Positions 1 through 46,269 of a stretch of DNA of 64,000 nucleotides are shown piece by piece. The notes beneath the pieces are model-generated. The model was not told the origin of the DNA, ran no database searches, and was given only the letters and a program-made list of their open reading frames with translations. The DNA lies in the NCBI RefSeq assembly GCF_038025025.1, contig NW_027117343.1, positions 1,550,001 to 1,614,000 on the forward strand. The letters are read 5' to 3'. The translations under genes were made by a program, and so were the position numbers. The stretch's first letter is position 1; each line of letters begins with the position of its first letter. This DNA comes from Phyllosticta citribraziliensis. Its lineage: Eukaryota.

Positions 1-1281
1 ATTACATTGATGAGGTTGAGGATTAGGAGAAAAGACGACTGGACCAGGATGGTGACAATTCCTGGTTCGTGGTAGGGGAGCGAAACATCCATGTTCGCGT
101 GAAGGTAATCCTGGGCTTGATGGCTGACGTGGAGAGTCTGAATTCCCTTTCGAGCGCCAAAGTTGCAGCGACAAACCAGAAGAGATACGGAGGAGATGCG
201 GAGGAACTAATGACGTCGTGGCAGGGACCTCCGGCTCGCTAACGCTCGTACTCGCTTAGGCCGGATTACTCATAACCTTATCATGACCAGACTACCTCAA
301 CACCAGCGTCATTCATTTGCAAAAGAGCCCTGCAATTCCTTTACAAGCGTATCAGAGACGCAGGGTCAAAATGAGGGTCTTTCCTCCACGCAAATTTCAA
401 CTTCGACCAAATGCAGCCCCGTGACAGCCCCGTGACGGTTCAAGATATCACCCTTCAAGGAACAACTACGCGACATCCTGATTGTACCAGTGATGGTCCC
501 TCGTGGCATGGCTATCTTGAAAGTGGGATGGCCTCAGGGTCATGTCTCACTCAGCTAACGCGTTTCAATTGTCAACTCGGTGTCGGGGCTCTCACGGCAT
601 CAACGGGCACTAGAAATCCCGTCGCAGATCTGGCCCCAGATCCGCCCCGCTGTAATCCAGCCCGCCCTCGTTCATCCACTCTTCAAATGTTTTGCGTTGC
701 AAGAATTTTTGCAAAACGACTGTCCCCCTTCAGATAAGCACGCGGCTCGGAATCCTTCTCGCTGGGATTACAACTTAGCAGCCGAGGAACGGCTACCAAC
801 TCCCAGCTTTTGAGCGATCGAAGGCATGGCTGTCGCTTGATGATGCGCACGCCCCTTTGACATGGGATGTTTCCAAAGCCATCAAAGCAATGCCGATGAC
901 ACCTTTCGTGCGAGCTTTCTAATCCCTCGAATAGGAATCTACCCACGTTCCGCAGCGTCTTTCTCGAACGACTGGCATGCGCCGAGTGGACTTTCGTCGG
1001 GCGTCTGACCATGAACAACTCGACTGCATGAAGGTCCTGTCCCGAAATATGCCGCCAAGAGAAGCTCCTGTCTCGAAACCAGTCTTGACTACGGAGTCGG
1101 CGGATGCGGCGGGCTGTGCTGGTCCAGTTTCGCGAAACGAATATGGCTCGACGCTTCAGACTTTAAGGGTCGCGTCGCCCTCCCACTGCCGCCTGTCGGG
1201 ACCCTCGTCCGGACACCACCAAATCTAGTCCTGTCAACTTGCCATCGGGTCTGTCGGAACTTCCAGTGCCAACCACTCATC

Positions 1282-4200
1282 ATGTCGATCTCTCAGAATT
1301 TTGCAGACAGCTACATTGCCTTCGAGTCGCTCCGTGCCGCGGCCAAGGACAAGGAAAAGCAACATGGAGAGACTATGACCGTCATTGCTGGTGAATTCGA
1401 CAAGTACACCATATGGGCCGACAAATCTGGCGCTGCGCGCTCCGGGAAGGATTTTCGACTTTCGCTAGACTATCAGCTGCGCGAAGCATCTTTCTACAAA
1501 GACCAGGTCGTCAAGCTGTTGCAAAATCTCCAGGAAAATACGGAAAAGGCACTCTCCATGCTTTCGGATGGCCACAATAATGAAAAGGATGGTCAAGATC
1601 TACCGAAAGACGGGGAAACTCAAGGACTGAAAGGTTCGGATGGAGCTGGTTGCCAAGCGGATGTTCAAGATGCAGAGGTCCAACGAGATGCAGTGGAAGA
1701 CGAGTCGAAGGCCGCCAAGCCGACAGACGACATCGAAACCACGCCAGCTACCAAGAAGCTCAGCGCTGACTTTTGGAAATTGATGAGCTCAATCAATTCG
1801 ACAATCTCAACACTAGAAAAGGTCCCCGTTCGCAACCGCAACTCGATCAACGAGATCAAAGATGAGGAACTAGAAGGTGGTATCGCCCGGGAGCACTTTG
1901 ATATTCTGCACGTCAGAGACAAGCTGCCAGACAAGAACCTTGACCCCAAAGTCATTACGCGCTTGGGGAAAATGATTACGCGCCGACGGCAGCTACTGCT
2001 ATCACTTAGGAGCCGACGCGACGAGTTTCGGATGAGCGTCTCACTTGCTGGAGCCTCGGTACCAAGCCTGAAAAAAGTCGCCGCCTTAGACGCTCCCCCA
2101 AACACGGCGGCAACAGAGAATTTCGACAGCCAAGGACAGGGCGACAAACCGCTACCCAGCATCAGGGACAGCGTCCTGTTCGCCCCGTCTGAGCCTGGTT
2201 CTGCGTCTGGCAGTTCGACGCCCCCAGGCACGCAGGTGGGAAAGCAGCAACCTCAAATACCGCCTCGGCCAAGAAACTCTGCAGGGTTGGGAATGACGCG
2301 ATTCGAGTGCAAGTACTGCTTCATGACGCCATATGTACCGTCCGATACGGAATGGAAGTAGGTATTGACGGAATCCTCTGAAAGGACAAACCATTGACTG
2401 CCGCAGAAATCACATCCTCCGTGACCTCCAACCCTACGTCTGCACCTTCGCTTCATGCAGTCTCGTCGACCGTGTCTTTGAGAATCGCGATGCTTGGTGG
2501 GAGCATGAGATTTCGCATCATCGGTCTCAATTCTACTGCAACACACCCGGCCACGCACGTTACCGAGATCAAACTGCATTTCAATCACACATGCGCGACG
2601 AGCACAATGCGGATCAAGTCCAACCCGAATTACTGGCGCGATTCCGCAGACCAGTCAAGAGTCAAGGCGGCAAATGCAATCTTTGCTCCCGCGAGGCGCG
2701 CGATCTGAAAAGACACGTGGCTCGACATTTGGAGCAGCTTGCACTCTTTTCGATTCCTCGGTCAGATTTCGACGAGGGCGACGGAGGTGCCTCCCGAAGA
2801 TTGTCTCTGAACCCGCAGAGTAAGCCAGTCAGAAAGAGTCAAAGGAACAGCAAAGACAAAGCAAACATCTACGAAGATGACAAGACCGCTCGGGGCAACG
2901 TTGATTCATTGCTCGAGGAATTGATCGAAGCAAAAGGTCTCCAGACCAACGTCCCCGACGACGATGACGATGACAGCACCACATGTGGCACTGGAAGCAC
3001 TGTTGGTCAGTCTCCGAAAGATACTGCAACAACACAGTCCCTCCTAAGGAAATCGGAATCGCGATCAGAGTCACCGATACCCGTGCCCATCAACACGCCG
3101 TACAAGAGGGTGGGAGTGCTCATGTTTACGTGGTCTGATCCACGACCAGCAATATCGGTAAGGGTGACCCGACACTGGCGAATGTTGCTAACAAATCAGT
3201 TTTTCGACCTCGAACACACTTTACGCTGCCGATATCGATTCGATGTGCGCGTCGAGGAAATCCCAACAGACGGAGATGTATCGCAATACTTTACGCGAGG
3301 CATCAGCGACCTGATCCGCGACTTTCGAGGGCGCTCAGACCTCATGATCATCTACTACGCGGGGCGCGCAAGATTTCTGAGCCGGTCGCAGGACCTCGAA
3401 TTCCGGAGCAACCGGGACTTTTTCGAATTCGACGTGCCATGTGCCTCAATGTCATGGAAGCTTATCGAAAGCAAACTTTTGGCCGACAACAATGTCAAGA
3501 GCGACGTACTGGCCGTGCTTGAGGATAGCGCAGCAATTGACTTTGCAAGCGGGAATGAAATTAGCCAGATTCTGGAGACGCCAGACGCGCATGCTCCATC
3601 ATCTTCGTCTTCTTCTGCTTCCTCCGACAATTCTGGCGAAGAGAAGCGCGACAGGTGTTTCCAATTCTTAACCATGCGACGCACAACACCTTATCCGCAG
3701 GCGTCGTTCACCGAGGCCATGAATCAGGTTTTATTGGACTCGACGTCTGGAATCGACGCTTCGGATCTGGCATACCACATGACCCTGCAGAATGAATACG
3801 GCCATGCAACGCGGAACCCGTGCTACGTCTTCCACCGGCTCAATCCACCTGGAAGAGACATTGCCATTGCCCCTCTTCCAGCACCCAAGAAAGAAGAGTC
3901 GCCATTGCCTGAAGTGAGACATGGGAAGGGAGACGGGAAAGCGAAACTATCCCAATCTGATTCTGAGGCCAAAGGGGAAGAAAAGGGTTCAGACTCGACC
4001 CCGGCATCTCCGGCACCCAGCTCCATTTCTGTGAGCAACCACCCGCTCGTCCTGATGGCGAAGCAAGTAACGCTTAAACCTTTCGTATGGCCCGCCCAGT
4101 TCAATCCTTATTCTGCTGAATATGTCGGCATCCCTCGCACGAACCGTGACCGCTTACATGTGCCTGAGCCGGCGTCCAGAAGCTCGCCCTCGCCAATCGG

Positions 4201-6196
4201 TCGCGTCGCAAGTGAGGGTCGTGAAGCCGCGGGTCCAGTGGTGGAGAGAAAACATTTTTCGTTGCTGCACCCACGCTTCCCATTCCGCCATCAACGAGAC
4301 CAGCGAGATCTGCAAGAACGAAAGCAACAAATTCAGACGTCACAGCTCGGTTCCTTCAAATTTGACCAATTTACGCCTTCCAAGCTGGACCAAACTCCCA
4401 GGCGACGTCTACCACGCCGACGCAAACCCAATGTTCCTGTCTACGAGAATGACCTCGACCTGCCATCAACATTGTCCCTGTCTTTGTCTCTGTCCTTGCC
4501 TACACCAACTCTGTCCCTCCCTGGGCCAGCTCCGCACGTTGACCCGGACGCCTACGAGAGACATGATAACGAGGATGATGCCGCTCCAGGCCCGACCGTC
4601 CAGCGACGCCGGCCCTCGCCCACGTTTCTTTCTCGCCGCAATACCATAGCTTCCACGCAATTCCTTGATGGGGGCATGTTCGCACCACAACAGCCACGCC
4701 GCCTCTCACGCACTACAATGAATCATGTCCGCAGCTCAAGCCAAGGCAACCAGTCTCGCACTTTGACGCTCAACCCTCGGAATACGGACACAAGATCCAT
4801 CATTCTCGACTCCACTGATGACTATCTCTACGGCGGTTATGTCGCAAACGAGGATCTCATAATGAATGGGGAGCCGGAGTCGGCACCTGCGCCTCAAATA
4901 CCGACACACATCGCGCGACCTCGACGATCGGCCTCGCGCTCTTCACTGCAGCTGCTCTCCAACTCAATATCGAGACACGGTTCCTTTTCACGGCGACGCC
5001 CGCTGACTGCAAGCGGCAGCACCCCTTCTCTTGCAAGCACAGTGGCCAGCATGCTTGGACCTGCTCCTGGCCCCATTTACAACCCGATGCCGAATCGAAA
5101 TGATAGAGCGACATCAGCACCTGCGCCTGTTGTACCTCTGACTCAACCCGAGCCGGTTGGACCTGTGTCACGAGTGTCACGAGGGCCGGACCAAGATCCT
5201 CAGAAGGAACACCAGAGCCTAAAGCGCTCGGCATCGATGTCTTTGCGCCACTCGTTGTCGCTTCGTCGCTCGATTACGGGCAGTCTGCGTCGATCGGCCA
5301 CACTGATTGGTATTGTGGGTAGTACTCCTGAAAGTGCTCTCCTCAAAGCTACAGCATCCTCTCCATCTCTACCTTACCCGGCCAGTTTGAGATTGGAGTC
5401 AAATTTACCAAACATGAACTCCGCTACGGGCGCGCCCAACGCGCAGAAGGACAACCTTGCCACCAACTCCAACAAAGAAGAGACTGCCAAAGATGACGGA
5501 TCCTCAGACAACCCAACGAACTCCAACACTGTTGAAGCGGCGGCCCCAGCCAAGTCACATGGCGCAGCCGAGTCTGCGCCCGACAACAGAATCAGCGTCA
5601 TCGCACCACTGCCACACATGCCGTCTTTCCCCATTCTCGCCTCATCTTCCCGCGCAACAACCGCTGCCGATCTGTCATCCATACCACTCCCTCCTGCCCC
5701 TGAAGGCACAAACGGCGGTACAAGCGGCGGGCTTCGGCGATCGCCATGGGGTTCGATGCGGCGAGGGCGGTCGCTCCGGCGGTCGATCTCAGGGCTCTTT
5801 AGCGCTGGAGCTAGCACTGGTGGGGCAGGAGTTGGGAAAGGCGACAAAACCAAGACCGAGCGCGCCGAGGAAGTTGAGGTTGATGGGTCTGCCGATGCAG
5901 AGGCCGCGGAAACGCAGAAGCAGAAGCGCGCGCGAAGCCGCAGTCGAGCGTCGAGGGACGGCCAGCGGGAAGACGCCGCTGTTCGGGGATCCGGCGTCCT
6001 CGCTGAGAGCAGCGGCAATCGTGGTAGCGCGGCGGGCGTTGAAAGCGGCGGTACTGGATCCGCTGCCGCTGATGCAGAGAAGAGCAGACCTGATTCTTCG
6101 GGCACGAGCGATATGGAGAAGAAGGCAAAGAAGAAACGGAGTCGCGCCGAACTGTGGGCAGGCTTTCGAGCAGGCGTTAGTCGAAGGGGAAGATGA
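1282..6196 (+). CDS. Large multidomain protein: N-terminal helical region, C2H2 zinc fingers, degenerate caspase-like (C14-like) domain, long low-complexity C-terminus
   Basis: ORF 1282-2361 joins the 2591-6196 frame through a GT-AG intron at 2358-2406, giving FECKYCF...EWKNHILRDLQPYVCTF...WWEHE...CNLC...HVARHLEQLALF, a common fungal C2H2 array. There is a probable in-frame 42-nt intron at 3158-3199 (GTAAGG...GCTAAC...CAG). The exon structure of the C-terminal half is uncertain. Confidence 0.7.
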
Positions 6197-6715
6197 GTGG
6201 TGAGAAGACGAGGACAGAACAGGCTAGAAGGCGAGGTGAGCGGCTGACGCGATGCGCTGGCGACTTCAGAATTCTGCCGCGTTCTTTGTTTGTTGTCGTT
6301 TCTGTCGTTGTTTTGCCGTCGTCTCCTCGTCTCCTCAATCTCATGGACCTCTGGAATCCCGGGCAGGAACATCCTGCAGCAACAGTGTTGTCAACGGGAA
6401 TAAGCGTTCTGTCTTTCCACGGTATGCTTTCGTCCAGTTCTCGGCTCTTTGCTGTCACCTGTCAGATCCTCGCAGAAATTCAACATTCAACACAATCAAG
6501 GGAATACGCCGAAGCACAACATCTTCGTCCACAAACAATGAACAGTATCGCCACACAATGCTCTGCTCAATGCTCACAAGACTCCCTTCTCCAGTGACAA
6601 CGACCTGTACAGATCCAGGACAGAGGTGGGTCTACCTCGGAATTAATATTCGTTTGTCGTCGCTCTACAAAGCTTCTTTGTCGGTGAACAGACAATCCGC
6701 AAAGAACTCGGGAGA

Positions 6716-9700
6716 TTTTATAGGCAGTAAGCTCTCCGCCACCTCGTGCGCCAGCCGCCCGTGTGATAGCCGCTCGACGTGGTCCCGCACATGATCGCCA
6801 GCGTACCGAGCGGGTGTAAAACAGCCGCTCTACTTCTTCGATTTGCAACAGCATCCACAACCTGTCCCTACATCGAAAAGGTCGCGAAGGCACACTCCAC
6901 TGCTGTGACTCGGCATTGCCTAAGAGGCCGGCAACATACTGTCGACGGCTGGCGCCCTTTTTGGTCAATCAGGCTCTCGGTGGACAGTCATAATTCTGCC
7001 CTGTCCCTACAATTGCACAATGACGGCGGCGAGCTTTATCATCCATCGACGGCGTAGAACGGAGTATGAGAGACAGAGAAGTGGGCAGCGGGAAAAAAGT
7101 ACGCATGGAATTACAGTGTCACTCATCTCTGAGAGTGTGCTCAGCGCGCAAGCCGGCAGTAGGAGTGAGGTATACCCATGGTCGCTGTGAAGGGAGCGTG
7201 CAAAGGCGCTGGCTCACAAAATGGAAAAGGAGTGAGGCACTGGAGAGGCTTTTATACCTACGACACCCCCGAGCACCGCCACTACTCATCTGCGACCATG
7301 TTGACAACGCAACCAAGCGCTGCCGAGCATGTGAACGCGAACTGCCTCCGGAAATTGACACAAAAGCGCGACCGCTGTCACTGCTCCCTTGTCAACTTGC
7401 CTCCGCCGCCGGTCCCCCAAAGCCGTGGCCAGCAAGAAGCGACTGGCTCAAAAGGGAGTGGCAGTCCGAAATCGCAGAACTTGTTGGCTCCTCGTTCTTC
7501 TCGGTTGTCCGAGGCTCCTGTTCGTTGTCACAGATGGAGCTGGCCTGGATTTGTGCCAATGGGAAAGAACTATCGGATTGTGCTAGTTGCTAACATAATT
7601 TTTAGACGTTTTCCGTCGTCGCCACAGAATCATGCTGATGGGTGCTGCCTCTACATCTCTCTTGCAAATCAATCGCTGACTTGGGAATCAGAGCAAGCGA
7701 GAACAGAAAACAGAAAACACAAGGCAGTAGACCTCGAAAGTGAAGCTCGGAGCCACCGGAAAGTGAAACCAAACTGCTGTCTGGTTGGTACGCCACAAGC
7801 TCGACAATGGCCTGGCGAAATGATTCTCGTAGCGAGGAAGAGGTGCTTTTATACTGGAGCGGTTGAATCACGAGCGTCAGGCAGCCACGCTGAGCACATG
7901 GATTTCTGGCGGCGATGTCCTTGCATGTGCCTCGCAGGGGTGCGTATAAATCGCGTCTCTGCTCTGCTTCCACCTTTTCAATCTATTTGCGTCTTTTGCA
8001 AAGAAGTGGTCTATCAGAAAACAACCTCCAGAAATTCTGACTTTCGAGGCTTGCGCTGTACGCTACAGAAGAGTCTTTTCCAGCGTTTCCTCTAGCCAAC
8101 GCTCACTTCAGCAAATAACTATATCGCGATCCACCATCAACCGAAAACAGCGGCGTGGAGCATCTACAACGAAGACCGACAACAACCACATCACGCAACG
8201 ACTCGACTGCAGATACCAAACCCACATCGAAATCGAAGAGATCGGAACGAGAGAAGAAACACACACAAGTGGAAGGTTTCGCAGAGCGTGACCGCGACAC
8301 GAAGTGGCATCTGACGGAATGGTACTTGCGTTTGCGATGTGTGCAAGGTGTCGCCCTACGAAGCCCCAAGAGAAGCAGATGAAGGCGTTTTATATCCCAA
8401 CGGCCCTAGATTCGATCAACAGCGACGCTCGGCACAGATCACAAGGACGGCGATCACGCGCTAGCTGACGAGGTGTCTGTGTGCTCTGCTTCTTGACTAT
8501 AAAAGCGCTGTACTGACCTCTGATTTGCGGCGAACTGTCCAACGTCTATGGATGCGCAGAAAGAGATATCACTGAGCAAGATAAAACACTGCGTTTCTAT
8601 GGAGACGGTCTTTGGTACGTTTTGGCTTTGCTTTTGCTGCTTCCCAGTCCTGTCTTCTCTCACAATTCCCAGCATCCAGAGTGTCGTCATTTTCCTCTAT
8701 TCAGGCGCAACGATGGACACCACCACCATCCCTTTCCTCCGTACACTAGTGTCCTTCATCACCACAAGGAATTCCTTCCACTCCAGCAGGGGCATGCAGA
8801 GCAACACACAGAACCACCAAGTCCGTATGTTCGATGTTGCCTTCATCCCTCCGCACAGTGTCAGTTGTCGAAAGGGAATGTGGAAGCAGTGCATCCATGC
8901 TCTGTGGTCGACGAGCTAGGCGGCGCGAGAGGTGGGCAGTATTTATACCCTAACAGCTCCTCACCAACGCACCTCTACCGGCTTCCGGGCCGGGCATCGA
9001 CGCATGTGGAATGGTGTGCATATGGAGCATTCGTCGCTGCCTGCGGAGGTCGGCAGTATAAATACGGCGCATGTGGGAAGCAGTTGTCGCTCACCAGCGG
9101 AGGCGGGAGGAAGAAGCGATTACTCTCCGTCACGAAAGACTTGCTTTTGCGTCCTCTACTTGCACAGCACCTTACTGGAGTCCTGGAAGTGCGGTCTGAC
9201 TTGAATTTTGGCGGGCCATTCTGTCACACAATTAGCCAACGCGTGGAATAATGACGTCTTTCTTCATTGTATTGAACTGCTGGACGACACTACTACGCCT
9301 ATATGAAGCGAGGACTTCGCTCTACCCACCACTGTGCTGGAAACGAAACGGAGAAAGCACAGCGAGAAAGTACCCGCTCGATGACACCATGGTCTCAAAA
9401 GGCAAGTGATGTCGAAGAACTTTGCTTGCCAGCAGCCTGCCCAAAAGTTGCGGATGCAAGAGAAGCAATCCAGGAGTAATGCTTCCCTTTTTATACCTGA
9501 CTGCAGCACGCCACAAGCCACAAGGCACTCTTTTGCCCGCAGTCACATGGATCCTTTACACTTCCCTTCGCGCGAATTGCGCGTGACAGATGACGACGCA
9601 CATACCAGCCCTGGACCCGACGGCGACTACAAAATCTCCGCCCGGAGGATCTGCTGCAACCCCAGAGTTCTCATCACTCTTTCGCGACGTATGGTCTCAG

Positions 9701-12700
9701 CTTGTCCGCTCCAACACTTGTGCCTTTTGTTTGGTACATTAACCCTGACTTCACTGTTAGAGTGAGCCTCCGCTTGAACCACGCCCCTTTCTCCTTGCGA
9801 GGAGTTCCGCCCATCACTTCCCTCCAGCTCAAGGCCGAGCTGGCCTACTCTACCAGATCGAAATTACGGACAACACTATCGCCCATCATGCCTCCAGCTC
9901 AGTCATCGAATCTACAACAATCTACGCGAAAGACACCGCGCAAACAACAGTTCGGACAAAGCAAGATGCACTGCAAAGAGTACTTGTGGTGTTTAGCACT
10001 TCATACGCCACAGGCAGGAGGTTTTAGGAGAGAAGAATTGCGACGAAGGAGCGCACCTTTATACCTAAAAGACCAGGTCGCGCACATGCACTAAACAGAG
10101 GTCTGCAACTAGTCGGAAACACACGTCCCGCGTAACTGACCGCGCAGAGAGCGACGCATGTGCCCTCAACTTCTTCTGCAGGTATAAAGGCACCGTTTGT
10201 TGCCTCCCTTTTCCACCTCCACAGGTTCTGTGACTCTCCACAGCTCTTGAGGCGCAAAACAAAGGAAGAATCCGACTTGTCTATTGTCGTCGCCCTTCCG
10301 ACAAATATAACTGGCTAGGTGGCTAGGAGGCACTTCTACAACAGTCACTTCAGTTTTTCTCTATCAATGCATGGTCCACGTTCGTCGAAATTTCCCAAAA
10401 TAGAGAGAGACTGACGTGCCTCAACAGGTCGAAGCGACAATAAAAAATATTGAACTCCGTAGGCGCTGGACACCATCCGCCAACGCCAGACCCTGCAATT
10501 TTCTACTCTCCTTGACGCAGGAAATGCCAGACAAGAGGCTCCCCACAAGTGTTCTCGAATATCCTGTGATCCCCCAGCAAAGTCTTCCGTGGTGGCATGT
10601 TGAATTGCCAAGTGGGGCACTGGCGTCCTGCAGATGAACGGAAGAGAGACATGAGAAAGAAGTCTGCTTTTATACCCGCAAGAATCCATCAATCACATGC
10701 GCTGCAACTCGCTCTATCACGCCAAAGACTGCCACATGCCACGCAATCAGCCGCGCGCAAGAGCGGTACGTCAAGGCTCCGCCACGGGTATAAAAGATCT
10801 GCCCCTGGAGCCCAATCCGCAATCCAACGAGTCTTTCCCGGTATTCCGCGACTCTTGGAGTTCAAGAGAAAGGGGGTTGACTTGCACCCACGCTGGCTAC
10901 TGACAATCTTACTTTGGCTTCTCGGGGGAGCTGTTTGTGGTAGCCATCCTCAGTTTCCCCTTCAGCAGCCCGCCCGCAGTCCACGACGTCAGCAAATTGA
11001 AATGACGGACAACACCGCTACGCTTCACTAATGCTTAACACCAGCATCGACGCCGTGGAATCCTCCCCATGCAATTCAAACAACAGTGAAGAAACAATGA
11101 CAGAAAAACAGACAAGAGAAACAAGTCTGATACCATAGCTTTAAGGGAGTTGCCCCTTTGATGGCCACACAGAAAGTAGAGAAGTAGGCAACGCAGGAGA
11201 AGCGGACTAGCTTTATACCTGCAGCCAGTCCTTGGGCACGCACGCACATACGCCATGACGCCCGCATCTAGCTAGTTGACGGCCACGTGTCTTGAAGCTA
11301 TCACGCGCTTGCGCTGTAGCCTCTGGCCACGCCTCTCAAGGCATAAAACTCTACTCTCTAACCCCCCTTTCCAGGTCGCTGCTCACACAGCCCTTCAACA
11401 ACAAAGCTTATGGACCCAGAAGAACACTACTTGTGCTTCGGAACGACGAACCAGGAATTATCGGCACTTTGGGGAGTTTCTTTGCGGTAATCCCTTCAAC
11501 CCCTTCAACAACGCGCAGTGACTGAAAACACCGCCACTGCGCTCCATCAACATCCATCATCACCAACCCACACCGCATCCTCCCCATCCCTCTCCTTCCC
11601 ACCTTTTCCCCCGCTCAAAGCCGACAGTAAAACTAGAAACAACACCAAGCAGAAAAGTAGGGCGTGTCGTCAAAATTTGTCCCGCAGGAGTAGTGTGGCT
11701 TGAAGTCTCATGGTGTACGTGTACCGCTGCCTTCGTCGACGACAGACCTACAGAAGAGAGACAGGGTCAACCAGGAGGGCTTTATACCCGCAGCGCGCAG
11801 CCCGCAGCCACGCTCCGCCCGTCACATGCGCCGTCAGTCACATGTCGCCAGGCCCCTGCGCGGTCTGTCGTGGGTATAAAATCGATTCTTTCAACGCTCT
11901 TGGACTGCAAGGAGTTCCTATCGGCCTGCGACGACCCTGAAAAAAACATTGACAAAAGAATCTACTTGCGTTCTGCAGCGACGCTATTCTTCACTCTTTG
12001 CGCGGTCGAGGCCTGCTGCGCGGCATTTCCAGTCCGAGTTTCTTCATCATTACACGCAAGCGACGGCGGCAGTACGTCGAAGTGATGATCAACGCCATCA
12101 GCCATTGACGCCACATAGTCCCCCTTTTACTCTCCCCTGCCCTAGCTGCAAAATCGATAGAAAGGGGAGTCGGCACGACAAACAAGTAATGTTGTTTGAT
12201 TACCTTTCCCAGAGTACTTCCCATGCTGAGAGTCTTCGTCGACCGCTGCCTCTGTCGGTAATGCAGTTGCGGGTTGAAAGTGAGGAGATACGCAGTGTTT
12301 TATACCAGCGGACGCTACCCATGACGCACATGCGCCGCGACCCCCACCACCTGCACTTCTTGGCAGCTGAAAGCCGCTGCGCTGGCACAGCCGCTCTCCT
12401 ATCCTCTCTGGCGGGCTATAAAACTGCATCTTCGCCCGCTCCACCAGCTTCTTTCGCCCGGCAGGCTGTGTCACTCTTGTCGACGCACGAACATGACATC
12501 ATCTCCGACTTCTGGCTTGTAGCTTCCAGAATCTGGGCAAGCTCTTACTTCGGCGGTGGGGAGGCGTGCCGCGATGTCCCTCCACCACCACTCTCCTTTC
12601 CTGTTCACCGATGCAGCGATAAGCTGCAGTGATGCATACCTACATCACCACCACTGAACAATCTCAACAATCTCAATATCATCACCCAATCTTGCCGCAC

Positions 12701-13054
12701 CACCCTCGCTCCTCCGCGCTCTTCAGAATGCAAGACAAGAAAAGCAAGAAAGTGGAAATGCCATCCATATGTAGCATGCACCACCAACGCAGTGTCCGTG
12801 TCTGGACCGCTGGTACCCACGGCGCCCCGGTGCTCCTGCCTGTCGATGAGAGATGTATTGTACAGTTCAAGCCCCGGCGGGAGAAGGGGGTGGGTGCTTT
12901 TATACCTCCACCGCTCACGCCCACTGGCAGCATGGGCAGTGCGCCAGGTTCACATGCCTGTCGGACTCCTTCACTCGTGATAGCGCCTGCATCAGAAGAC
13001 AGGCAGGCGCGCAGCAGGCAGGCGCGCAGCAGGTAGACAAGTATAAAAACACCC
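6716..13054. repeat. Array 1: 12 periodic units, each with an inverted TTTTATAC...GTATAAAA pair
   Basis: Left arms at ~6716, 7250, 7847, 8388, 8941, 9488, 10058, 10668, 11212, 11781, 12298, 12898 (spacing 517-610 bp). Right arms at ~6814, 7357 (degenerate), 7944, 8497, 9056, 9625 (degenerate), 10181, 10786, 11341, 11872, 12416, 13041. Confidence 0.85.
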
Positions 13055-14501
13055 CTCCCTCTCCCTCCCCCCCTTTCCATCTACACAACAGCAACGCCAA
13101 CGACAACGGCATCGCTCGCAGCGTCGCTGCCGAGCGACCAAAGAAAACGTCAGATTTACTGTTGGCCTACCATTCTCTTCGTACTGTACTGTCTTTCCGT
13201 CGCTCCTGGCTGTTGCTTCCTGCTTTCTTACTTTTGCCCGGCAGCTCTGGCACGCCGATAGATACACAGGCAGTCAGGCGAGAGGATGACGAGGTGATGA
13301 TGGCGATCGTGACCACAGCGCAAACGCGACACGCAGCATTGCACGCTGCCTTCCATCAGTGAACCAAGGCCGATTGCACTGCATCGACAAGGCAAAATAA
13401 CGTTGGTTGGTCTATCCATTGATCTCTTCATTCGTTCGTTCGTTCGCTGCTTTCGTCTGTCTGTCTGTCTGTCCGCTGCCCATGCGACTCGACACGCCAC
13501 GCATCTCCTGCCCTCCCTTTTCCTTCGCTTTCGCTTTGAATTTTCCGGCAACCAAGCAACCAAGCAAGCAGTCAAGCAGTCAAGTAAGCAGTCTTTTTTT
13601 TCTTCGGCGCGTTGGCGTCACTACCACCCTATATCCACCATCGCCGTCACCGCCGTCGCTCCTGCACAACAGCACACAGCCGACCAAAATAAACGCCAGT
13701 GAAACAAGAAGCCGAGGAGCGCGGCACAACAGCAACGCAAGCAGGGTAGTAGGACAGAACAGGACGTGACAGGAGGCAAAATCTACAGAGCGCAAAGAAG
13801 GAGAGCGTGAGAAACGTGGCCATCAACGGGACAGGCGAGGATTTTAGAAAAGGTGAGGCAGGAGAGAAGAGAGGAGGAGAAGGAAAAGGAGAAGCGGGTA
13901 TATCGGCAGAGAAAGCAAGTGGTACATGGCATAATGGCGTGAGTGCGTAAGAGTGCGTGAGTAATAGATGAACAGGGGAGAGAAAGGGCAAGGGAAATAG
14001 AAAAACCGAAAAGATGGAAAGATGGGAAGATGTGGCTAGCTGTTTGGGCGTTGAGGGCGGCGGTGAGCGCTCTTTTTCGTCTTCGTCTTCGTCTTCTTTT
14101 TCTTCTTCGGCGGCATATCCTTTTCGATCTTTTTGGGATCAACGGCTCTGCGGCGAGAGCTGGCGATGCTGGCGTGGAGTATTGCGCCGTCTGCCTGCGG
14201 TCGTTGGTGCGGCGAGGAGTGTGGCGTGCTGTCTGCCGCACCGCGCCCACACGACGGGATATCCGGAACGACGGGAGCCGCAGCGAGCGCCTGCCAGCTT
14301 CTCAGTCTGACAATGTCTCGCTGCGGAGCACGATTCCCGTGCCAACCCGAAGACTGCAACGGGGAGACAAGTGGAGACCGGCGGAGGAAGGCCTGAACTA
14401 GCCCAGCAGAGGAGAGAGGGGCGGAGCGGAGCGGAGGCGATTCCTAGCGCCCACACGGTGGCAGAACCGACCACGTCCACTCCTCTCCACGCCATTGGTC
14501 C

Positions 14502-15629
14502 TCAGATCAGCTCGTCCGCGCTGCCGGCCCTCGCGCTCTCTTCAATGGCGCGCCACACAAAGTCCTCCTCGAACACGGGGCCCTGCCCGTTGCACCGCGC
14601 GGCGCCGCGCAGCCGCTCGCACACGTCCGCCACGTCGACCGCGCCCTGCCGCACCGCCGGGTGCGCCTGGATGAGATCCCACGTCTCCTTGGCGCCGAGG
14701 TGGTGGCCGGTGCTGGCGGCGCCGACGATGGGGATGCGCGAGAGGATGGTGGCGCCGGGGCCCAGGCCGGCCGTGTCGGGCGGCTTGTGGTGGTCGTCGT
14801 CTTGCGGGACCTTGCCCGTGACGACGGTGACGGCGTCGCGCGCAGAATCTCGTTTTCCGTCTTGGCCCGCTGCAGCAGCAGCTTCAGCCGCTCGTTGTCG
14901 CTTTGCAGGCTGTGCGTGCTGCTCTCCAGCGCCGACAGCTTGGCCTCCAGCTCCCGCACGTGGCGTTCCTTGCGCTCGCGAAAGGCGCGCTGCGCGGCGC
15001 GGTTCTGGGCCTTGCGGCGGGACTGCGCGGGCGTGAGGTTGCCGGTTGCCGTCAAGGCGCCCGTCGGCGTGGCCGCGGTCCCCGTGGCGAGGGACGATAT
15101 GGACGGCCGCTTGACGATGGTGTGTCCGCTCGCCGACTCGCTGTCGTCGTTGTCCGAGGAGCCGCTGCGGGTGCGCGAGGGCGAGTGCGGCGGTAGCGCG
15201 AAGGCGGCGTCTGCGGGAGCGGCTGCGGGAGCGGCGGCAGGAGCAGTGGGCGCGGGCGGGAAGGATTGCTGCTGGAATGGCGGGACGCGTGGTTGGGCAG
15301 AGTCGAGGTCGAGGTTGATGGCGCTGTCGACGCTGGCAGAGGGGTGGAGGGCGGCGGGGCCGGCGACGGCGGCGTGGTGGTGATTGGGCGGCGAGCCGGA
15401 ATGCAGGTTGTGGCAGTAGTGCTGTTGGGGCTGATGCTGCAGCGAGAACTGGTCAAAGTGGTGGTGTTGGTTGTTGTCCTGGGGGCGATTAGTGAGCAGC
15501 AAGCGAAACTGTGGGGATAATACGGACGTGGGGATTTATCTTGTTCTCGATGCCATCGTACGAGGGCGTAGGGGGCAGGCCCATGTAGTATTGCTGCTGG
15601 GGCGGGGCGGAAAAGTACGAGTAGTCCAT
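14502..15629 (-). CDS. AP-1/Yap-like bZIP transcription factor (RsmA/Fcr3-like), apparently frameshifted after the zipper
   Basis: Starts MDYSYF at 15629, with an intron at 15527-15479. Basic region TPAQSRRKAQNRAAQRAFRERKERHVRELE plus a leucine zipper ending ENEILRAT. The C-terminal block KETWDLIQAHP...DVCERLRGAARCNGQGPVFEE...AIEES...DELI* lies in a different frame and ends at 14502. Confidence 0.85.
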
Positions 15630-18519
15630 GGCGATGGTGTCGACGACTCTCAGCTGGCGGGGGAGCTGGAGGTGACAGACGAAGAAGTGGTGGTGGTCTG
15701 GAGGAAATGAAGGTGTCCGGGTCGGGATCGAACAGACCTGAAGCTCGGACGGCAGGCGGAGCGAGGGGAACCAGGCGGAGCGTCGTCGAAATATACCTTT
15801 TGCTGCGTAAGCCGACAGCGACAGCGACACCGACGACAGGAACAAGCTAAGGTAAGGCTGAGGGCGCGACGAGGTGTAAGGTAAGGTATGTAAGGTATTC
15901 TCTTCGCTGTCCTCCATGTCGGCCGGTCAGTCAGTGCTGTGGGCTGTGGCCGTCCGTCATGACGAGGACGAACAAATCCCTGCAGCTGATCCGCCCGTCG
16001 ATCGTCACTGGCCACTGCATCTGACCGGCCGCTGCAACGAAACAAACGAAACATGTATCAACTACTTCAAACGACATCCCCATCCCATCCCAATTCTGCA
16101 ACCCAACGCCTCCTCTCCCCACCATGTCCCTGTCCACCACAACAACCGGCCCGCCGTCCGCCTCCGCCCTACAGTACATCGCGGATCCACCTGAGCAGAG
16201 CAACGCACTTCCCCCGCCAGCCGGAAGACGTGGCTGATTAACGTTACCGCGGGAGGCCGCTTGAGAGGAGAAGCTTTGTATTTTGGTGTCAGAAGCACCC
16301 TTTTCTCATTTGTTGTGCGATCCGCGCGCTTGGTTGGTTGCCCGTTGGCGCATGGGTCTGGAAGCGGGCGGGCCGGCGGCGCGGGCTTTGGCTGCTCCTC
16401 GAGTCCTCTTTGCGGGTGAGCGGCATGCCCCCAGGCAGAAGTGAGGCTGTTTGGCCAAGATCCGCGATGACGGGCTTTGCGGTACACGTGCTTCAGGTAC
16501 CAGTGCCTATGGCAGTGTCATCCGGCATGCTCGAGGTGGTGTCGTAGCTTGGACTGGTGTTGTAGGAGTACTCGGGTCCAGATTGGGCATGCTTGCAGCA
16601 AGTGTCGTCTACCACTGAACGTCAACATCAATGCCTTTTCCCATCTAGTATGGTTGGGAATCCATCCTCTCCGACGTGCAATAGTCTTGCGAATCTCGAG
16701 TCTTCCAACAAGCCTCGACATCTTCACTGATTGGTCGGAGAAAAGCTGCAGGGGTAAACATCCAAGCAAAGCAGCTAGACAAGCGCCAAGCATTTCAGGA
16801 CTCGGTTCCCGCAGTACATATGCTCATGCATATGCCCATTGAAATGTAAGCCGCGATAGATGAACCTTGCGCTACACAACTTGAGCATGAGCCTTCTGAA
16901 GAATATCAATGTGTGTAGGAGCGTTGATGGAAGACAAGCGCGATTGACGAATCGAAAGACCCGGAAAGCACCGCCCCGAGACACTTGCGCAGAGAGATCA
17001 GCGCACTGCAGAGTCTGTGGTCCCAAAACAGGGGCATCAAAATCGGGAATGACAAGACTGGAGCGAGGTGAAGAGATGATGAAGCAAGCCAGTGTTGGAT
17101 CAACCAACCGTTCAACACCGATAAATGAATACCATCGCCTCCAGAGATCCAGATGCCCCGCCTGATCACGTACATTCAAGTACAGCAGAACACAGTATGA
17201 CGTGCGGTCCATGGATTCGCGCATCATCATCAAGTCCCATGTCTTCCGAACCCGTCTTACCTAGGCAGATCCTATGCCAGGCCGGCAGCGATCCTCAACC
17301 AACATATGTGAGTAGGCGAGATGGCCGAGACCATGAGGCTGAAACCCACGCTTGCGTGGTCATCGACCCCGCGCCGCACCTCGCCACGCTCCGAAAGACG
17401 GCGACAGCCAGTGGTGGAATGGAACGATCGAGGTCAGATGGGCAGCAGAGGCTTGAGAAGGCGGAGGCGGAGGCTGAGATGAAATCCGCAGAGAGGGGTG
17501 AAGATACGCAGTGCGACGCCGCAAGAGGGGAAGGACAGGGAAAGCGTTGCCAACATGTCGTCAGCGACGGACGAGGCCAATGGCAAGACGGTCCAGGGGC
17601 TGGCGAGGCTGATGTTGCATACGCGATGGTTTACGCCCAGGCCCACGTGTGCGGTTGAGAAGATGGATGGTCCAGTGTTGGAGGAGTCAGGGGGCCAAAA
17701 CGGGTAACTGCATGCATGAAGATGTCCATGCAGCCATGATACGGGCTACGGTCTGGACTCGAGATTGGGTGATTCTGAAAGGAGAGCCGGAGAAACGCGA
17801 TAACGTAGTTGGACGCTGCGGCGCCATTTGGTTGTGTTGGTGGCGTGGTGACAGCGCGTCTACTCAACCGCACTGTCCATGGACGGCGGCGATATACAAA
17901 GGCTGGCTGGAGAGAATGGGTGACTCACGAATGCTCAAATCTCTCTCAAGTTGAGGTCTCAGAATATATTGAGCCGTCCCACGATGCACATCTATTGCAA
18001 ACGAGTCCGCCGTATCAATGTCACTATATTCCAAGTCAGCAAAAGTCGGCCGAAGGACGCGCGTGGCTGCCGGACGTGATTCACCGTGGAGGAATGGCCA
18101 TCGTCGAAGCAGATGATGCGCCAAAGCATTTCGCGAGACATCCGACGAAAAGAAAATGGAAAAAGACGTAGTCGTTCGTGGTCAGCAGCTGAGCGGCTTT
18201 TCAGGGGCGAATCACCAGCCGCTGTTGGAGACTTGAGCTTGAAGCTGAAAGGTTGGTGTGAGCTCGGGAATTCACCAGGGACTTTGGCACGTGTCACTGT
18301 CATGGCTGACCTGCTGGAGATTTCGTAGGTTTTCAGGTCGGCCGTGCCAATAATCCTTTTGATCCATTCCAGTCGCTTTCGTATTTTCGTTGGCTTATTT
18401 GCCTTCTAGATTGTAGATTCGGGTCCTTTACTGCTGTGTCTAGGTGCCAGGCCTGGGACCATTGACGGTCGAACTTCCCGAGCCAGCTCGAGCATGGCGT
18501 TGATGTGTGCCCGCTGGGC

Positions 18520-26866: not shown

Positions 26867-29800
26867 ATGGGGAAAACTTATTCTTACGGACCCAATATCG
26901 TCCATGAGCCTACAGACACGTCAAGTATCGTTGCAGAGTAAGTTGACATAATTCAAGCTGTGTCGTCTCCTTCCTTACCACAGTAGTATCTGCTTTGTCC
27001 ACGGACTAGGTGGCCACCGGGAAGATACCTGGACGAAAAAAGAAGGAAAAGGTCAGTGCTGGGAGGCTCCCCAGAAATCAACGACACTGATTCAGGGATC
27101 GTTTCTCCAGGCTCCTGTTTTTGGCCCAAAGAGCTCTTATCTACAGACATCGGAAACGTCAGAATCATCTCTTGGGGCTACAACGCAGCGATTGTTGCTT
27201 TCTTTGGAACGGACAGCAAGGAAAGTCTGCAGGGTCTCGGGAATGCTCTCATCAACGACCTTTCGATACTTCGAAAACGTGAAGTGGTAGGTACAATCCA
27301 GTGATGTAAAATCACAAACGGCTGACACATCATATAGCGGGAAAGACCTTTGATTTTCGTGGCACACAGTCTAGGCGGTCTTGTGGTCAAACAGGCAATC
27401 ATCCAGTCAAATACTCATTACAACAACAAGTCATCTCGATCGGGGGATATGTTTCCTGCCGTCAAGTGCGCGGTAAGTTTGTATCTACGGAGGCAGCACA
27501 GCAAAAAGCTTACCTATGGACCTAGATGTTCTTGGCAACTCCTCACAGGGGCTCAAATGCTGCGAATTGGGCAGACATGGTCACGACAATCACTGCACCA
27601 TTAGCCATCAGGCTATCCAACAAAGAACTCGTGAAGACTTTGAAATCTGATTCGTGCGTTTTGTACAACCAGAGAGAAACCTTCTTGGCTGTGCGCCACT
27701 CCGTCGACCTGGATGTGCCATGCTTCTACGAAAACCGCCCTACATCGAAGATGACAGTACGATCTGCCTTGATATAATCTTGTCCCACGGCTGACCGCTC
27801 CCAGATCGTCCCCAAGGACTTTGCCGTCATAGAGGATTGTCATACCCGGATTGCAATGGACGCAGATCACCATGAAATTTGCAAATTCAACGACAAGAAT
27901 GACGTCAACTATCAAAGAGTCCTCAACGAGATCCAGATGGCTGTGGAGAAAATCGAAACGGAGAGAGACACAGCCGCTAAAGAAATACAAGAGAGACGAG
28001 AAAGAGAAGCTAGAGAGGTACAGGAAAGCACAGCGAGAGTATCCCGGCAAGGTCAGTCACGATGGTTTCGAACTACCTGACTGCCTCCATCCTACCGTCT
28101 TCCTCAGAAAATATTCGTCAAATAAAGTCAAGGACTGCTTCCTAGGTGCAGTTGTACATGAATGCTCCTTGAGCGCAGGCGTAGCAGCGAATGAATGCTC
28201 CTTGAGGGTGTTTAGATGCGGATCCAGCGAATTCAAAGTGATATTGATCAGCTACTGACTTAACGAGCAGAGACCGACGACCTCCTAAAGTCGTTATATT
28301 TCGCCGATATGGACCGAGTACCTCGCAGGATTGAAAATGCATTAGCCGGAACCTTTGAGTGGCTATTCGAGCAACAACCTTCTGAAAGTGACTGGGCCGA
28401 GGACGAGCAGTCAGACCACATTGCGGATTTTCAAAAGTTCCTCAATTGGGTACATTCTCCCCAATCCCTCTTCTGGATTACCGGGAAGCCTGCTTCGGGG
28501 AAGTCGACAATGATGAAGTACATCGACAACGATGGGTGGGAAAGACTGACTCAACACCTCAAGCAATGGACCGACGGCGATCTACTCATCCCCGCCGCTT
28601 TCTTCATAAGAAATACTTCCGAGTCCCAACTGTCACGATGCGGATCCGGCCTTCTTCGCTCTCTTCTATACCAGCTGTTACGCCACCCGGAATTGGAAGA
28701 CATCATCAAGTCTGCCTTCGCAAACAGCCCAAGCTCCCCGCAATCGTCGAAAGATTTAGAATGGTCTTGGGAACAACTGGAAGCTGCATTGATCCGCTGT
28801 CTGTCCAAAAAGCCTTCCAAGACAAAATTATTCCTCTTAGTGGACGGGCTCGACGAGCTCAATTCAATAGAAGAGAGAGATCAGAGTGAAGGGCCGCCAA
28901 CTTTCGCTGCACGAGCCTCAGCATGGGATCCCATGATGGCGTTGTTGATCCGAGTCTCGAAATTTCCAGGTATCAAGATCTGTCTCTCCAGCCGACCATT
29001 TTCCCAGTTGGAAAAACATTTTACGGAATCCTCGCGCCTGGAGATTCACAGGCTCACAGCTGGCGATATCAAGAAGTTCACCGAAAGCGTGCTCGAGAAG
29101 AACGACAGTGTTTGGCAAAACCTCACAGAACAGATTGTTGACCCCCGGGAACGCATCTCACACATGATTCAGATAGGAGCTGAAGGAGTCTTCATGTGGG
29201 TAAAGATCGCTGTACGCGCGGTGAACGCGAACTTGGATGGATACGCAAGCTTTGAAGACATTGAAAAAATGCTCAATGGGTTTCCGGGCGAATTGACTTC
29301 TGCCAATGGGCTTTACGCCCAGGCGCTCAGCAACTACCAGGATGGGTACAATCGGGATACGGGGCTCCGAATGTTCTATCACCTCTACGACTTCAACAAC
29401 CTGAAAGAGGACCGGAAGCTTCAAATTACTCCAATGAATCCGCAAGTTCTCTATCTTGCAGAAAAGCTCAATGGAAGAGAAGACAAAGTGTTCGAATCAA
29501 CTCGGGGTGTGTACGATCTGCTTTCCTCCAGGACGGAATGGCATGCAATCGTCGAAAAAGAAAAGAGGCGTATTTGGAACTACACCGCCGGTCTACTTGA
29601 ATGTCGAGATCTTGGAGATAGAAGCAGCTGGAGAGCAGACACCAACGAACTCACTGTGACCTGGGCCCATGAGACAGTCCGCGAATTTCTTGGAAGAAAG
29701 CACCGCAGCAAGATAGTGATGTGGGACCAGGAACCTGGGAGAACACTCGATGAGAACGAGAGCACTTCTAGGGTCGCCATCGCATTCCTCCTCTTCGACT

Positions 29801-42306: not shown

Positions 42307-42381
42307 TGCTCTGCTCTGCTCTGCTCTGCACTGCACTGCTCTGCTCTGCTCTGCTCTGCTCTGCACTGCATTGCTCTGCTC
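42307..42381. repeat. (CTCTG)n microsatellite
   Basis: Imperfect pentanucleotide run visible directly. Confidence 0.85.
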
Positions 42382-45694: not shown

Positions 45695-45759
45695 GGATGG
45701 ATGGAAGGATTGATGGATTGATGGATTGATGGATTGATGGATTGATGGATTGATGGATG
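45695..45759. repeat. (GATGGATT)n microsatellite
   Basis: Octamer tandem run visible directly. Confidence 0.85.
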
Positions 45760-46269
45760 CATTACTCGGTGAGTATGCGCAGCTTTGCACTTTTTGACGG
45801 GTGTCCTTTTTTGCTTGGTCGTCTCTTCTCTTCTTCTACAACACTTTTTTTTCTTTCTTCTCTCTTTCTTCTATCGACGGCGCAGTCGTCCTCTTTTGAT
45901 ACACTACTTTTTTTTTTTTTTCCCCTCTCTCCGCGACACTGACACGCGATGTATGGTTTGCTGGTATGGTATGGTATGACTTGGCTGTTTTTTTTTATTT
46001 TTGCTGTTGCTGTTTGTCTGACTGATGATGCTTACTGCTTTTACTTTGTACGACGACGGCCGTGGCTGCTGCTGCTGCTGCTGGTTTCAATTCTGTTTTT
46101 TTTTTTTTTTTTTTTTTTTTTGCGTCTGCTGGACTGCGATATCGGATATGATATGAAGGGAGAAGTGCGTTGAGTTGATTCTTTTTGCTTGCTTGTTCTT
46201 CGATCGTATCTTGGTGTGCTATGGGGCACGGAAGGAGGCAGTGTTTTGTGTGGTGTGGTTTGAGGGACG

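Follow-up and report, generated by a model that had tools for sequence, protein, structure and literature searches.

In yeast, the nucleosome-free regions of bidirectional promoters fire both ways and give rise to short cryptic or stable unannotated non-coding RNAs; of the two directions, the non-coding one is usually without a consensus TATA box and goes along with a genuine gene. The small-RNA loci of fungi that involve convergent transcription or natural antisense, such as the Neurospora disiRNA loci, consist of ordinary, dispersed genes. The type-I 21U-RNA (piRNA) clusters of C. elegans bring together many autonomous mini transcription units with a common upstream Ruby motif. A. nidulans promoters have TATA 30-45 nt upstream of the start sites, pyrimidines enriched from -50 to +25 and a CACGTG peak near -70 (PMC4046813), and the mouse L1Md promoter monomers are head-to-tail repeats of variable copy number (PMC6454616).

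Here we describe two arrays in a stretch of 64,000 nucleotides (hereafter, the window) from the plant-associated fungus Phyllosticta citribraziliensis, a citrus-leaf endophyte. Together they hold ~25 TATA pairs at a period of ~560 bp, each stretch being 6-7 kb long and the two taking up 21% of the window. The initial annotation had reported 12 regularly spaced TATA-like inverted pairs at 6716-13054, and our count agrees with it: array 1 comprises 12 units at intervals of 518-611 bp (mean 562, sd 29, 11 intervals). Its placement between convergent genes (stops at 6196 on the + strand and 14502 on the - strand) was likewise correct, the two being C2H2-type and bZIP ORFs. Array 2 has the same architecture and polarity as array 1, and its adjoining ORFs, which are predicted and not confirmed genes, have the same orientation as those at array 1. 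This second array (54434-61652) was overlooked in the first reading.

2369-6196, + strand: left flanking gene, C2H2-type, with 99% identity to a protein of P. citribraziliensis; 3' end towards array 1
6716-13054, unstranded: array 1, 12 units, each with a core between outward-facing TATA boxes; period 562 +/- 29 bp
14502-15535, - strand: right flanking gene, bZIP; 3' end towards array 1
54434-61652, unstranded: array 2, 13 paired units and a lone + strand TATA box at 54917

We found 28 TTTTATAC/GTATAAAA octamers on both strands of the window, against 0.35 expected, a count that none of 100 shuffles reached; all 28 lie at 7250-13048 or 54434-61471, that is, within the two arrays. The arrays also take in 39 of the 44 TATAAA hexamers (+ strand, 18 of 19; - strand, 21 of 25). 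A comparison of motif-pair frequency with shuffles was run on the window and bore out the pairs: 15 divergent exact pairs (TTTATA followed by TATAAA 40-190 bp on) were present, against none in 100 dinucleotide shuffles, and the convergent order (TATAAA then TTTATA), searched across the window at 40-190 bp, did not occur. The clustering of the array motifs is real and far from chance. In array 1, 8 of the 12 units have exact hexamers in both arms and 4 have a degenerate arm (6717/6817, 7361, 9629 and 11343). The units are given below, array 1 before array 2; cores are unstranded.

6717-6822: unit 1 core, both arms degenerate (TTTTATAG / GTGTAAAAC)
7251-7366: unit 2 core, degenerate right arm (ACACAAAAG), one CATGTG
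7848-7950: unit 3 core, two E-boxes
8389-8503: unit 4 core, without E-box
8942-9062: unit 5 core, CATGTG and CATATG
9490-9634: unit 6 core, degenerate right arm (CTACAAAATC)
10058-10188: unit 7 core, two E-boxes; contains a spliced + strand intron
10669-10794: unit 8 core, two CACATG
11212-11348: unit 9 core, CACGTG; right arm GCATAAAAC
11781-11880: unit 10 core, two CACATG
12299-12422: unit 11 core, one CACATG
12899-13047: unit 12 core, one CACATG
54435-54542: array 2 core
54917-54922, + strand: array 2 lone TATA box (GTGTATAAAATCC), left partner lost or degenerate
55398-55499: array 2 core
55938-56053: array 2 core, right arm GTACAAAAG
56517-56617: array 2 core, arms altered complementarily (TTTTATCC / GGATAAAA); top palindrome, fold z -7.3
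57058-57130: array 2 core, short
57619-57743: array 2 core
58117-58238: array 2 core, CACGTG
58672-58792: array 2 core, both arms degenerate (TTTCATAC / GTATTTAAAC)
59303-59447: array 2 core, CATGTG and CACGTG
59835-59886: array 2 core, the shortest
60289-60352: array 2 core, left arm TTTTGTAC
60809-60958: array 2 core, left arm CTTAAATAC
61465-61651: array 2 last core, three E-boxes; right arm GTATAACAC

The cores are 40-175 bp long and have a GC content of 62.9%, against 52.6% in the spacers. Across the 51 half-units, the TATA arms read RGGTATAAAAGC in the minus direction and GGGTATAAAA(C/T)C in the plus direction, both matching the consensus TATA box; tested outward on each strand, TATAWAWR was found as RGGTATAAAAG/C, some of the 51 half-units being degenerate. 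A pyrimidine tract stands outward of each box: the first ~40 nt that follow GTATAAAA have a C+T content of 0.60-0.67, and the stretch ahead of TTTTATAC has an A+G content of 0.69. Both runs noted initially, purines ahead of the left arm and pyrimidines behind the right one, are thereby confirmed. The cores (2,639 bp) contain 21 CACATG/CATGTG motifs, the spacers (10,229 bp) 2 and the remaining 40.5 kb 18 (7.96, 0.20 and 0.44 per kb, respectively), corresponding to a ~18-40-fold core enrichment, and an E-box is present in 18 of 25 cores. At +60 to +170 from the TATA box, ACTTG occurs 30 times, in 26 of 51 half-units, against 6.1 +/- 2.6 in shuffles and 7 on the opposite strand. Its offset in both arrays is about +82 to +108 in the plus direction and about +113 to +147 in the minus direction, and the mid-spacer motif CATCA is found 23 times on the + strand versus 5. 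A first EM motif run was dropped because of seed bias.

The spacers, 373-510 bp long, are as divergent as first described. All-vs-all blastn of 26 units returned 6 weak pairs, whole-unit MAFFT alignment gave weak blocks only, and TRF found no long-period tandem repeat near 560 in the window. The similarity between array 1 and array 2 is limited to the TATA motif, and the spacers match the remainder of the window over 15-17 nt only, which we take as chance.

How do these arrays compare with the systems above? They differ from the yeast bidirectional promoters in having a consensus TATA box in both directions and no gene. They would resemble the disiRNA loci if, as we propose, their opposed promoters yield overlapping sense and antisense RNA; unlike those loci, they are dedicated, non-coding, arrayed units with one promoter grammar. 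The arrays may work in the manner of 21U-RNA clusters, in which a common short motif goes with an unrelated transcribed sequence in each unit, but they are not a member of that class, given the other phylum, the TATA pair in place of the Ruby motif, the other unit size, and the strict pairing and periodicity. As in known divergent fungal promoters, two half-promoters stand back to back. With the A. nidulans TATA/pyrimidine promoters (PMC4046813), they have in common TATA, adjacent pyrimidines and a CACGTG-type E-box tens of bp upstream, and on sequence grounds the unit layout is the same as that core-promoter layout; what sets the arrays apart is ~25 copies at a 560-bp period with no protein-coding gene on either side. 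The L1Md monomers are repeated promoter units too, but they are mutually similar, unidirectional and upstream of mobile-element ORFs.

A metagenome scan for CTTTTATACC-N85-115-GGTATAAAA returned at least 119 loci, with no arrays among the matches listed; since those listed are mostly AT-rich (top GC 0.59) and include no array, we read these loci as chance matches. We found no published account of such promoter arrays in Creative Commons PMC papers and bioRxiv, and the view that this is not a described fungal element stands within that literature.

Transcription of array 1 was followed in assembled contigs. X1 and X3 are runs from two studies, whose RNA status comes from a guess together with the observed splice joints; X2 is a DNA-like run, and X4 is a relative, about 90-96% alike. 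Such contigs cannot show transcript starts, ends or strand, and their depth was not used to rank expression. Array 1 is present in X1 and X3 contigs and thereby in spliced RNA, with four GT..AG joints of 47-59 nt, all four on the + strand:

7642-7691, + strand: intron, X1, GT..AG with a GCTGAC branch-like site, mid-spacer
10101-10147, + strand: intron, X3, within the unit 7 core
10380-10427, + strand: intron, X3, mid-spacer, GTTCGT..ACTGAC..CAG
13186-13244, + strand: intron, X1 and X3, downstream of the last + strand TATA box

In the same runs, the bZIP intron is spliced as CT..AC, and a contig of X2 (record 10) continues across 10380-10427 without interruption. Several cores are spanned by single contigs (X1 records 1, 2 and 4; X3 records 17 and 18). 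Because the introns are all on the + strand, one of them lies within a core and contigs bridge cores, at least some + strand RNA must traverse the TATA pairs instead of beginning or ending there.

Some contig boundaries in array 1 were also noted. X1 has no listed piece at 12238-12488 and 12840-13081, which cover the cores of units 11 and 12 with 40-70 nt on each side. Contig ends with an adapter tag were seen in X1 (10698, 12238, 12840 and 13081) and in X3 (8640 and 9915); the one at 13081 is 39 nt past the TATA box at 13042. A reading of these holes and ends as RNA termini was set aside, since contigs cannot show ends and holes prove nothing.

Considering the above results, we favor a model, to which we give an even chance of being right, in which bidirectional core promoters under common regulation send short non-coding transcripts into every spacer from its two ends. 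Each unit would be a divergent RNA polymerase II core promoter regulated together with the other units, its GC-rich core presenting CACATG/CACGTG E-boxes and TGACG-type sites between the outward TATA boxes, with the pyrimidine tract typical of filamentous-fungal promoters beyond each box. With ~25 modules ~560 bp apart, polymerases would run into each 373-510 bp spacer from either end. The two TATA boxes of a pair would both fire, and sense and antisense RNAs would overlap within the spacer. The strand-specific ACTTG plus T-rich element (on the other side, A-rich plus CAAGT) may help to end the incoming transcript. The products would be short, unstructured, non-coding and partly spliced; their sequence would drift freely while selection holds the promoter grammar. 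Downstream, the RNAs or their transcription may act through dsRNA or small RNA, by transcriptional interference, or on chromatin or boundaries. Bidirectional promoters were one of the models put forward initially, and they are backed in part: the sequence grammar and the presence in spliced contigs agree with them, but the RNA seen is + strand only (4 of 4 introns) and crosses some cores.

We also considered a more specific version, in which the arrays are dedicated dsRNA/small-RNA factories, one E-box factor switches on ~50 opposed TATA promoters, and the freely diverging spacers form a cassette repertoire; it corresponds to the repeat-spacer RNA cassette array of the initial annotation. Transcription of a spacer from its two ends would yield a sense/antisense pair, and the small RNAs of these cassettes might have targets in the fungus's own genome or in the host. 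We regard this version as rather unlikely.

The alternative that fares best, although we likewise consider it improbable, is that the arrays are tandem small + strand genes (lncRNAs or micropeptide mRNAs) in which the right-hand (+) TATA box alone is the gene promoter. The left box would be a promoter with an antisense or regulatory role, or else a remnant, and read-through would give some two-unit RNAs. The + strand orientation of all four GT..AG introns points this way, as does the fixed polarity of the units in both arrays (the ACTTG offsets and the CATCA bias of 23 versus 5). A codon-score scan detected strand skew only, that of array 1 resembling a + sense strand. Furthermore, hydrophobic first ORFs of 7-21 aa begin mid-spacer in many plus-directed units, and three adjacent units have in common the pattern M-[LV]-x-x-[IA]-[IV]-x-R-L-stop. 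On the other hand, the minus-directed boxes equal the plus-directed ones in consensus match and pyrimidine tract, so that idle left boxes would be hard to explain. The small ORFs are not conserved between units, and what is in excess mid-spacer is CATCA/TGATG as a motif, not ATG as such. ATG-free leaders were rejected as a sign of translation because GTA, TAG and GAT are depleted equally. The X4 relative also speaks against these genes, with 1-nt indels at 7486, 11081 and 11426 in array 1; all four listed indels in the flanking coding sequence are multiples of 3.

Somewhat less probable still is that the DNA and its bound proteins carry the function, with the RNA as a by-product. The TBP and E-box-factor sites would serve as a sink for factors, as a boundary or insulator between the convergent genes, as a cohesin/chromatin organizer or as a recombination substrate; the initial model of protein-bound or recombination sites falls under this reading and is not separated from bidirectional promoters by these analyses. 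Conservation limited to binding-site grammar and spacing, with the transcribed sequence left free, would fit such a role, and so would the position of array 1 between ORFs whose 3' ends face it. In the X4 relative, a joint skips 579 bp from core to core, its shorter side being only 26 letters long, and may point faintly to units having been gained or lost. X4 cover is absent over parts of array 1, and these gaps were not used. The splicing and the strand-specific ACTTG and CATCA motifs suggest instead a constraint that goes beyond protein-binding cores.

An overlooked cluster of small protein or peptide genes (effectors, secreted peptides) might be expected in a plant-associated fungus with tandem, fast-evolving, transcribed units, and a few spacers do contain single ATG ORFs of 123-129 aa. 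However, no ORF common to the units was found across the spacers, in agreement with the earlier statement that they contain no consistent one, and stops interrupt every frame of a spliced RNA-derived piece of 572 nt. For three of the longest ATG-initiated array ORFs (123, 126 and 129 aa), no credible homologs were found in a protein database that contains annotated Phyllosticta proteins, as the match of the flanking gene indicates. In a profile-free search, the 129-aa ORF gave two matches to internally repeated proteins over 33-35 aa, which we judged to be chance. The spacers are without coding constraint, the 1-nt indels in the X4 relative weigh against small proteins as well, and this reading is largely refuted and very improbable. 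As far as tested, then, the initial description of the array as non-coding stands, on the stops in all frames of the spliced piece and the ORFs without homologs.

Scarcely any likelihood is left for a hairpin RNA precursor, another of the initial models, in which read-through RNA would pair the TATA arms and the purine/pyrimidine flanks into a stem. Cores with 25-nt flanks do fold somewhat more stably than shuffles, with a mean z of -1.12 (5 of 25 below -2), the hexamers are paired in the minimum-energy fold of 12 of 25 cores, some cores are crossed by RNA, and in three units the two arms have changed to match each other (8942/9057, 10058/10183 and 56517/56612). Nevertheless, arm complementarity within a unit was not above that across units (p = 0.31, 0.10, 0.075; separately p = 0.80, 0.45), any left arm pairing equally with any right arm and without co-variation, and at least 7 degenerate units lack compensation. 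What is conserved in the arms is their sequence and not their pairing with each other, and a stem would not require their exact TATA consensus. The spacers are also free of structural constraint: 23 of them folded no better than shuffles (mean z +0.45 on the + strand, +0.54 on the - strand). The model was thus not borne out. A snoRNA/snRNA cluster was not supported either: no Rfam family reached gathering thresholds, two sub-threshold matches were not credible, and a C/D box scan turned up no more than 2 weak C..D candidates, confined to a single strand of array 1.

Finally, a decayed satellite, MITE array or solo-LTR array without present function, suggested by the regular period and the inverted terminal motifs of each unit, is hardly to be entertained, because neutral decay would erase the boxes, yet TATA and E-boxes stay near consensus in ~50 copies while the remainder is unalignable, and TRF found no long-period repeat and the arrays carry no RIP signature (RIP indices normal). 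A satellite or tandem repeat was rejected because the units cannot be aligned to one another (6 weak pairs among 26), and a MITE/TIR transposon because internal sequences are dissimilar between units and the arms of one unit do not co-evolve.

In the proposed bidirectional core promoters, commonplace components (TATA box, pyrimidine tract, E-box) stand in an unusual arrangement: 51 consensus core promoters in two non-coding arrays, apparently selected while the intervening sequence drifted. If both boxes of each pair fire, the arrays would represent natural serial convergent transcription under one regulator. They could then be used to study transcriptional interference and termination between opposed polymerases, as well as the origin of fungal dsRNA and small RNA and the conservation of promoter grammar alone. 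A sizeable type of transcribed locus can thus elude the protein-centered annotation of fungal genomes.

Across the 64-kb window, the octamer TTTTATAC and its reverse complement GTATAAAA gave 28 matches where 0.35 would be expected, a count reached by no shuffle, and all 28 fell in two stretches: array 1 (6716-13054), described in the initial annotation, and array 2 (54434-61652), absent from it. Together the arrays make up 21% of the window and hold 39 of its 44 TATAAA/TTTATA hexamers. Exact TTTATA-(40-190 bp)-TATAAA pairs numbered 15, with none in 100 dinucleotide shuffles, and the reversed order (TATAAA then TTTATA, 40-190 bp apart) did not occur in a scan of the window. The array first described is confirmed and stands on firmer ground than originally reported. 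When arms one or two letters off the hexamer are admitted, array 1 comprises 12 units that follow one another every 518-611 bp (mean 562, sd 29), matching the twelve pairs at about 560 bp noted before. Array 2 comprises 13 paired units and one lone plus-directed box, at intervals of 454-656 bp; one longer interval (963 bp) lacks a left arm.

The best-supported reading, to which we give about an even chance, is that the arrays are co-regulated putative divergent core promoters, one per unit. The two boxes of each core would drive Pol II RNA outward, each spacer being entered from either side, and the products would be short, unstructured, non-coding transcripts. Left, minus-directed arms (outward consensus RGGTATAAAAGC) and right, plus-directed arms (outward consensus GGGTATAAAA(C/T)C) alike match the canonical TATA box, and the pyrimidine-rich tract outward of each agrees with the purine and pyrimidine runs reported earlier. 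Cores are 40-175 bp long (median 104), richer in GC than spacers (62.9% vs 52.6%) and strongly enriched in the E-box CACATG/CATGTG (21 copies in 2,639 bp, compared with 2 in the 10,229 bp of spacers and 18 in 40.5 kb of remaining sequence). Enrichment extends to CACGTG and TGACG, and an E-box is present in 18 of 25 cores. This layout of TATA, pyrimidine tract and E-box follows the grammar of Aspergillus nidulans promoters, whose mapping places TATA 30-45 nt upstream of start sites, pyrimidine enrichment from -50 to +25 and a CACGTG peak near -70 (PMC4046813). Left and right arms differ slightly but systematically in sequence, which points to duplication of entire units.

Of the words sampled from array 1, 89% and 30% were present in contigs from two runs taken as RNA (two studies, same organism code). 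Aligned to 4000-16000, these contigs, which show neither starts, ends, strand nor level, revealed four joints with GT..AG ends in the array 1 region:

7642-7691, plus strand, intron joint
10101-10147, plus strand, intron joint inside the core of unit 7
10380-10427, plus strand, intron joint, unspliced in a contig from a DNA-like run
13186-13244, plus strand, intron joint found in both RNA runs

The bZIP intron was spliced as CT..AC in the same contig sets. From the plus-strand joints and the unspliced DNA-like contig, we conclude that array 1 is transcribed and spliced on the plus strand. Several RNA contigs span cores and, with the intron inside the core of unit 7, establish that part of the RNA reads through the TATA pairs, against a simple picture. 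The bidirectional promoters proposed initially agree with the promoter grammar at both boxes, and all four joints are on the plus strand; minus-strand RNA and start sites at the boxes are predicted. A tandem family of plus-strand lncRNA or micropeptide genes, with the left-hand boxes as antisense promoters, is possible but doubtful. We are similarly hesitant about the boldest reading, in which the arrays would be dedicated dsRNA or small-RNA cassettes. RNA contigs of both runs also cover 13408-14502, extending over 1 kb past the bZIP stop codon and coming within about 350 bp of the final TATA box in array 1; this may be a long 3' UTR of the bZIP gene, whose end contigs cannot show.

Spacers (373-510 bp, n=23 measured) carry short strand-specific signals whose polarity is constant across both arrays. 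In 26 of 51 half-units, ACTTG with a T-rich tract after it lies at +60..+170, with 30 copies in all, against 6.1 +/- 2.6 in shuffles and 7 on the other strand. Plus-directed copies cluster near +82..108 and minus-directed ones near +113..147. CATCA lies mid-spacer on the plus strand. From the opposite side the ACTTG element is an A-rich run with CAAGT at its end, and we infer that it could help terminate the incoming transcript. It is unlikely that the arrays act at the level of DNA or bound protein, for example as a factor sink, boundary or recombination substrate, and yield RNA only as a by-product.

Small protein genes are very improbable. No ORF is common to the units, and three ORFs that rank among the longest starting with ATG (123, 126 and 129 aa) had no credible relative in databases containing the neighbouring gene's annotated Phyllosticta proteins. 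Among the indels listed in contigs of a close relative (about 90-96% alike), all but three of the total, array 1 has 1-nt changes at 7486, 11081 and 11426, and the flanking coding regions have +3, +3, -9 and +6. The spliced 572-nt piece at 9915-10581 has stop codons in all three frames, and the array looks non-coding, as first called. ATG is depleted in the first 180 nt; since GTA, TAG and GAT are depleted equally, we attribute this to composition and reject start-codon selection. Three adjacent array 2 spacers (59590-59640, 60060-60110, 60540-60580) hold related plus-strand ORFs of 9-10 codons from first or early ATGs (MLLTIIPRL, MVVLRAVMRL, MLCAIISRL), a likeness that may stem from recent duplication of an ancestral unit and not from a peptide.

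Hairpin precursors, also proposed initially, have very little left in their favour. Cores with 25-nt flanks fold slightly better than shuffles (mean z -1.12; z < -2 in 5 of 25) and pair their TATA hexamers in 12 of 25 cases, which we ascribe to generic inverted symmetry. Spacers show no folding advantage over dinucleotide shuffles (mean z +0.45 and +0.54 on the two strands, n=23), and complementarity between arms within a unit does not exceed that across units (permutation p = 0.31, 0.10, 0.075; second test set 0.80, 0.45). What is conserved in the arms is thus the motif itself and not a stem. No Rfam family passed its gathering threshold; relaxed E-values yielded just two matches, both below threshold. 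A C/D-box scan was negative. In the array 2 core at 56517-56617 the two TATA arms carry matching, complementary changes (TTTTATCC / GGATAAAA), and as a palindrome this unit exceeds all others by a wide margin (fold z -7.3). A decayed satellite or MITE is highly improbable: in keeping with the spacer divergence first reported, only 6 weak blastn pairs arose among 26 units, and Tandem Repeats Finder returned no long-period row. The TATA motif is the sole sequence common to the two arrays, and spacers bear no RIP signature. In the relative's contigs, one joint links 10715 with 11295, from core to core, and omits 579 bp, equal to one period (the shorter side has only 26 letters); another links 10773 with 10911 and omits 137 bp that take in the plus TATA box of unit 8. 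These joints hint that unit number and content vary between relatives.

Array 1 lies, as first described, between convergent genes. The plus ORF that stops at 6196 shares 99% identity with an uncharacterised C2H2-type protein attributed by its source to Phyllosticta citribraziliensis (78% with P. paracitricarpa, 64% with P. capitalensis), and the minus ORF ending at 14502 encodes a bZIP. The remaining window holds ordinary fungal genes, including coatomer gamma, and microsatellites:

28264-31047, plus strand, intron-free ORF of 927 aa, NPHP3_N/NACHT domains
33807-36446, plus strand, intron-free ORF of 879 aa, NPHP3_N/NACHT domains
42307-42386, microsatellite (TGCTC)16
45696-45758, microsatellite (GATGGATT)8
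46096-46121, microsatellite T26
46389-46441, microsatellite (TAGGTAG)7.6
47044-48393, minus strand, lipoyl synthase, adjoining the glyoxal oxidase gene
48800-50791, minus strand, glyoxal oxidase (Glyoxal_oxid_N and GO-like_E_set) with an N-terminal chitin-recognition (chitin-binding) module

The two NACHT ORFs, one also carrying DUF7791, look like a tandem fungal NLR-like gene pair and lie where the AT content of the window is highest (GC 0.475-0.51). GC content and skew vary strongly at 45-47 kb, where microsatellites lie.

As the initial annotation held, the architecture appears undescribed: full-text search of Creative Commons PMC papers and bioRxiv found no such arrays. The nearest systems include ordinary fungal bidirectional promoters and convergent-transcription small-RNA loci, and nematode 21U-RNA clusters are near in mode of working; the arrays are a member of none. 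We rate them among promoter-driven non-coding transcription units; in the best-supported reading, selection would act on promoter grammar and spacing, and the transcribed sequence would be largely unconstrained.
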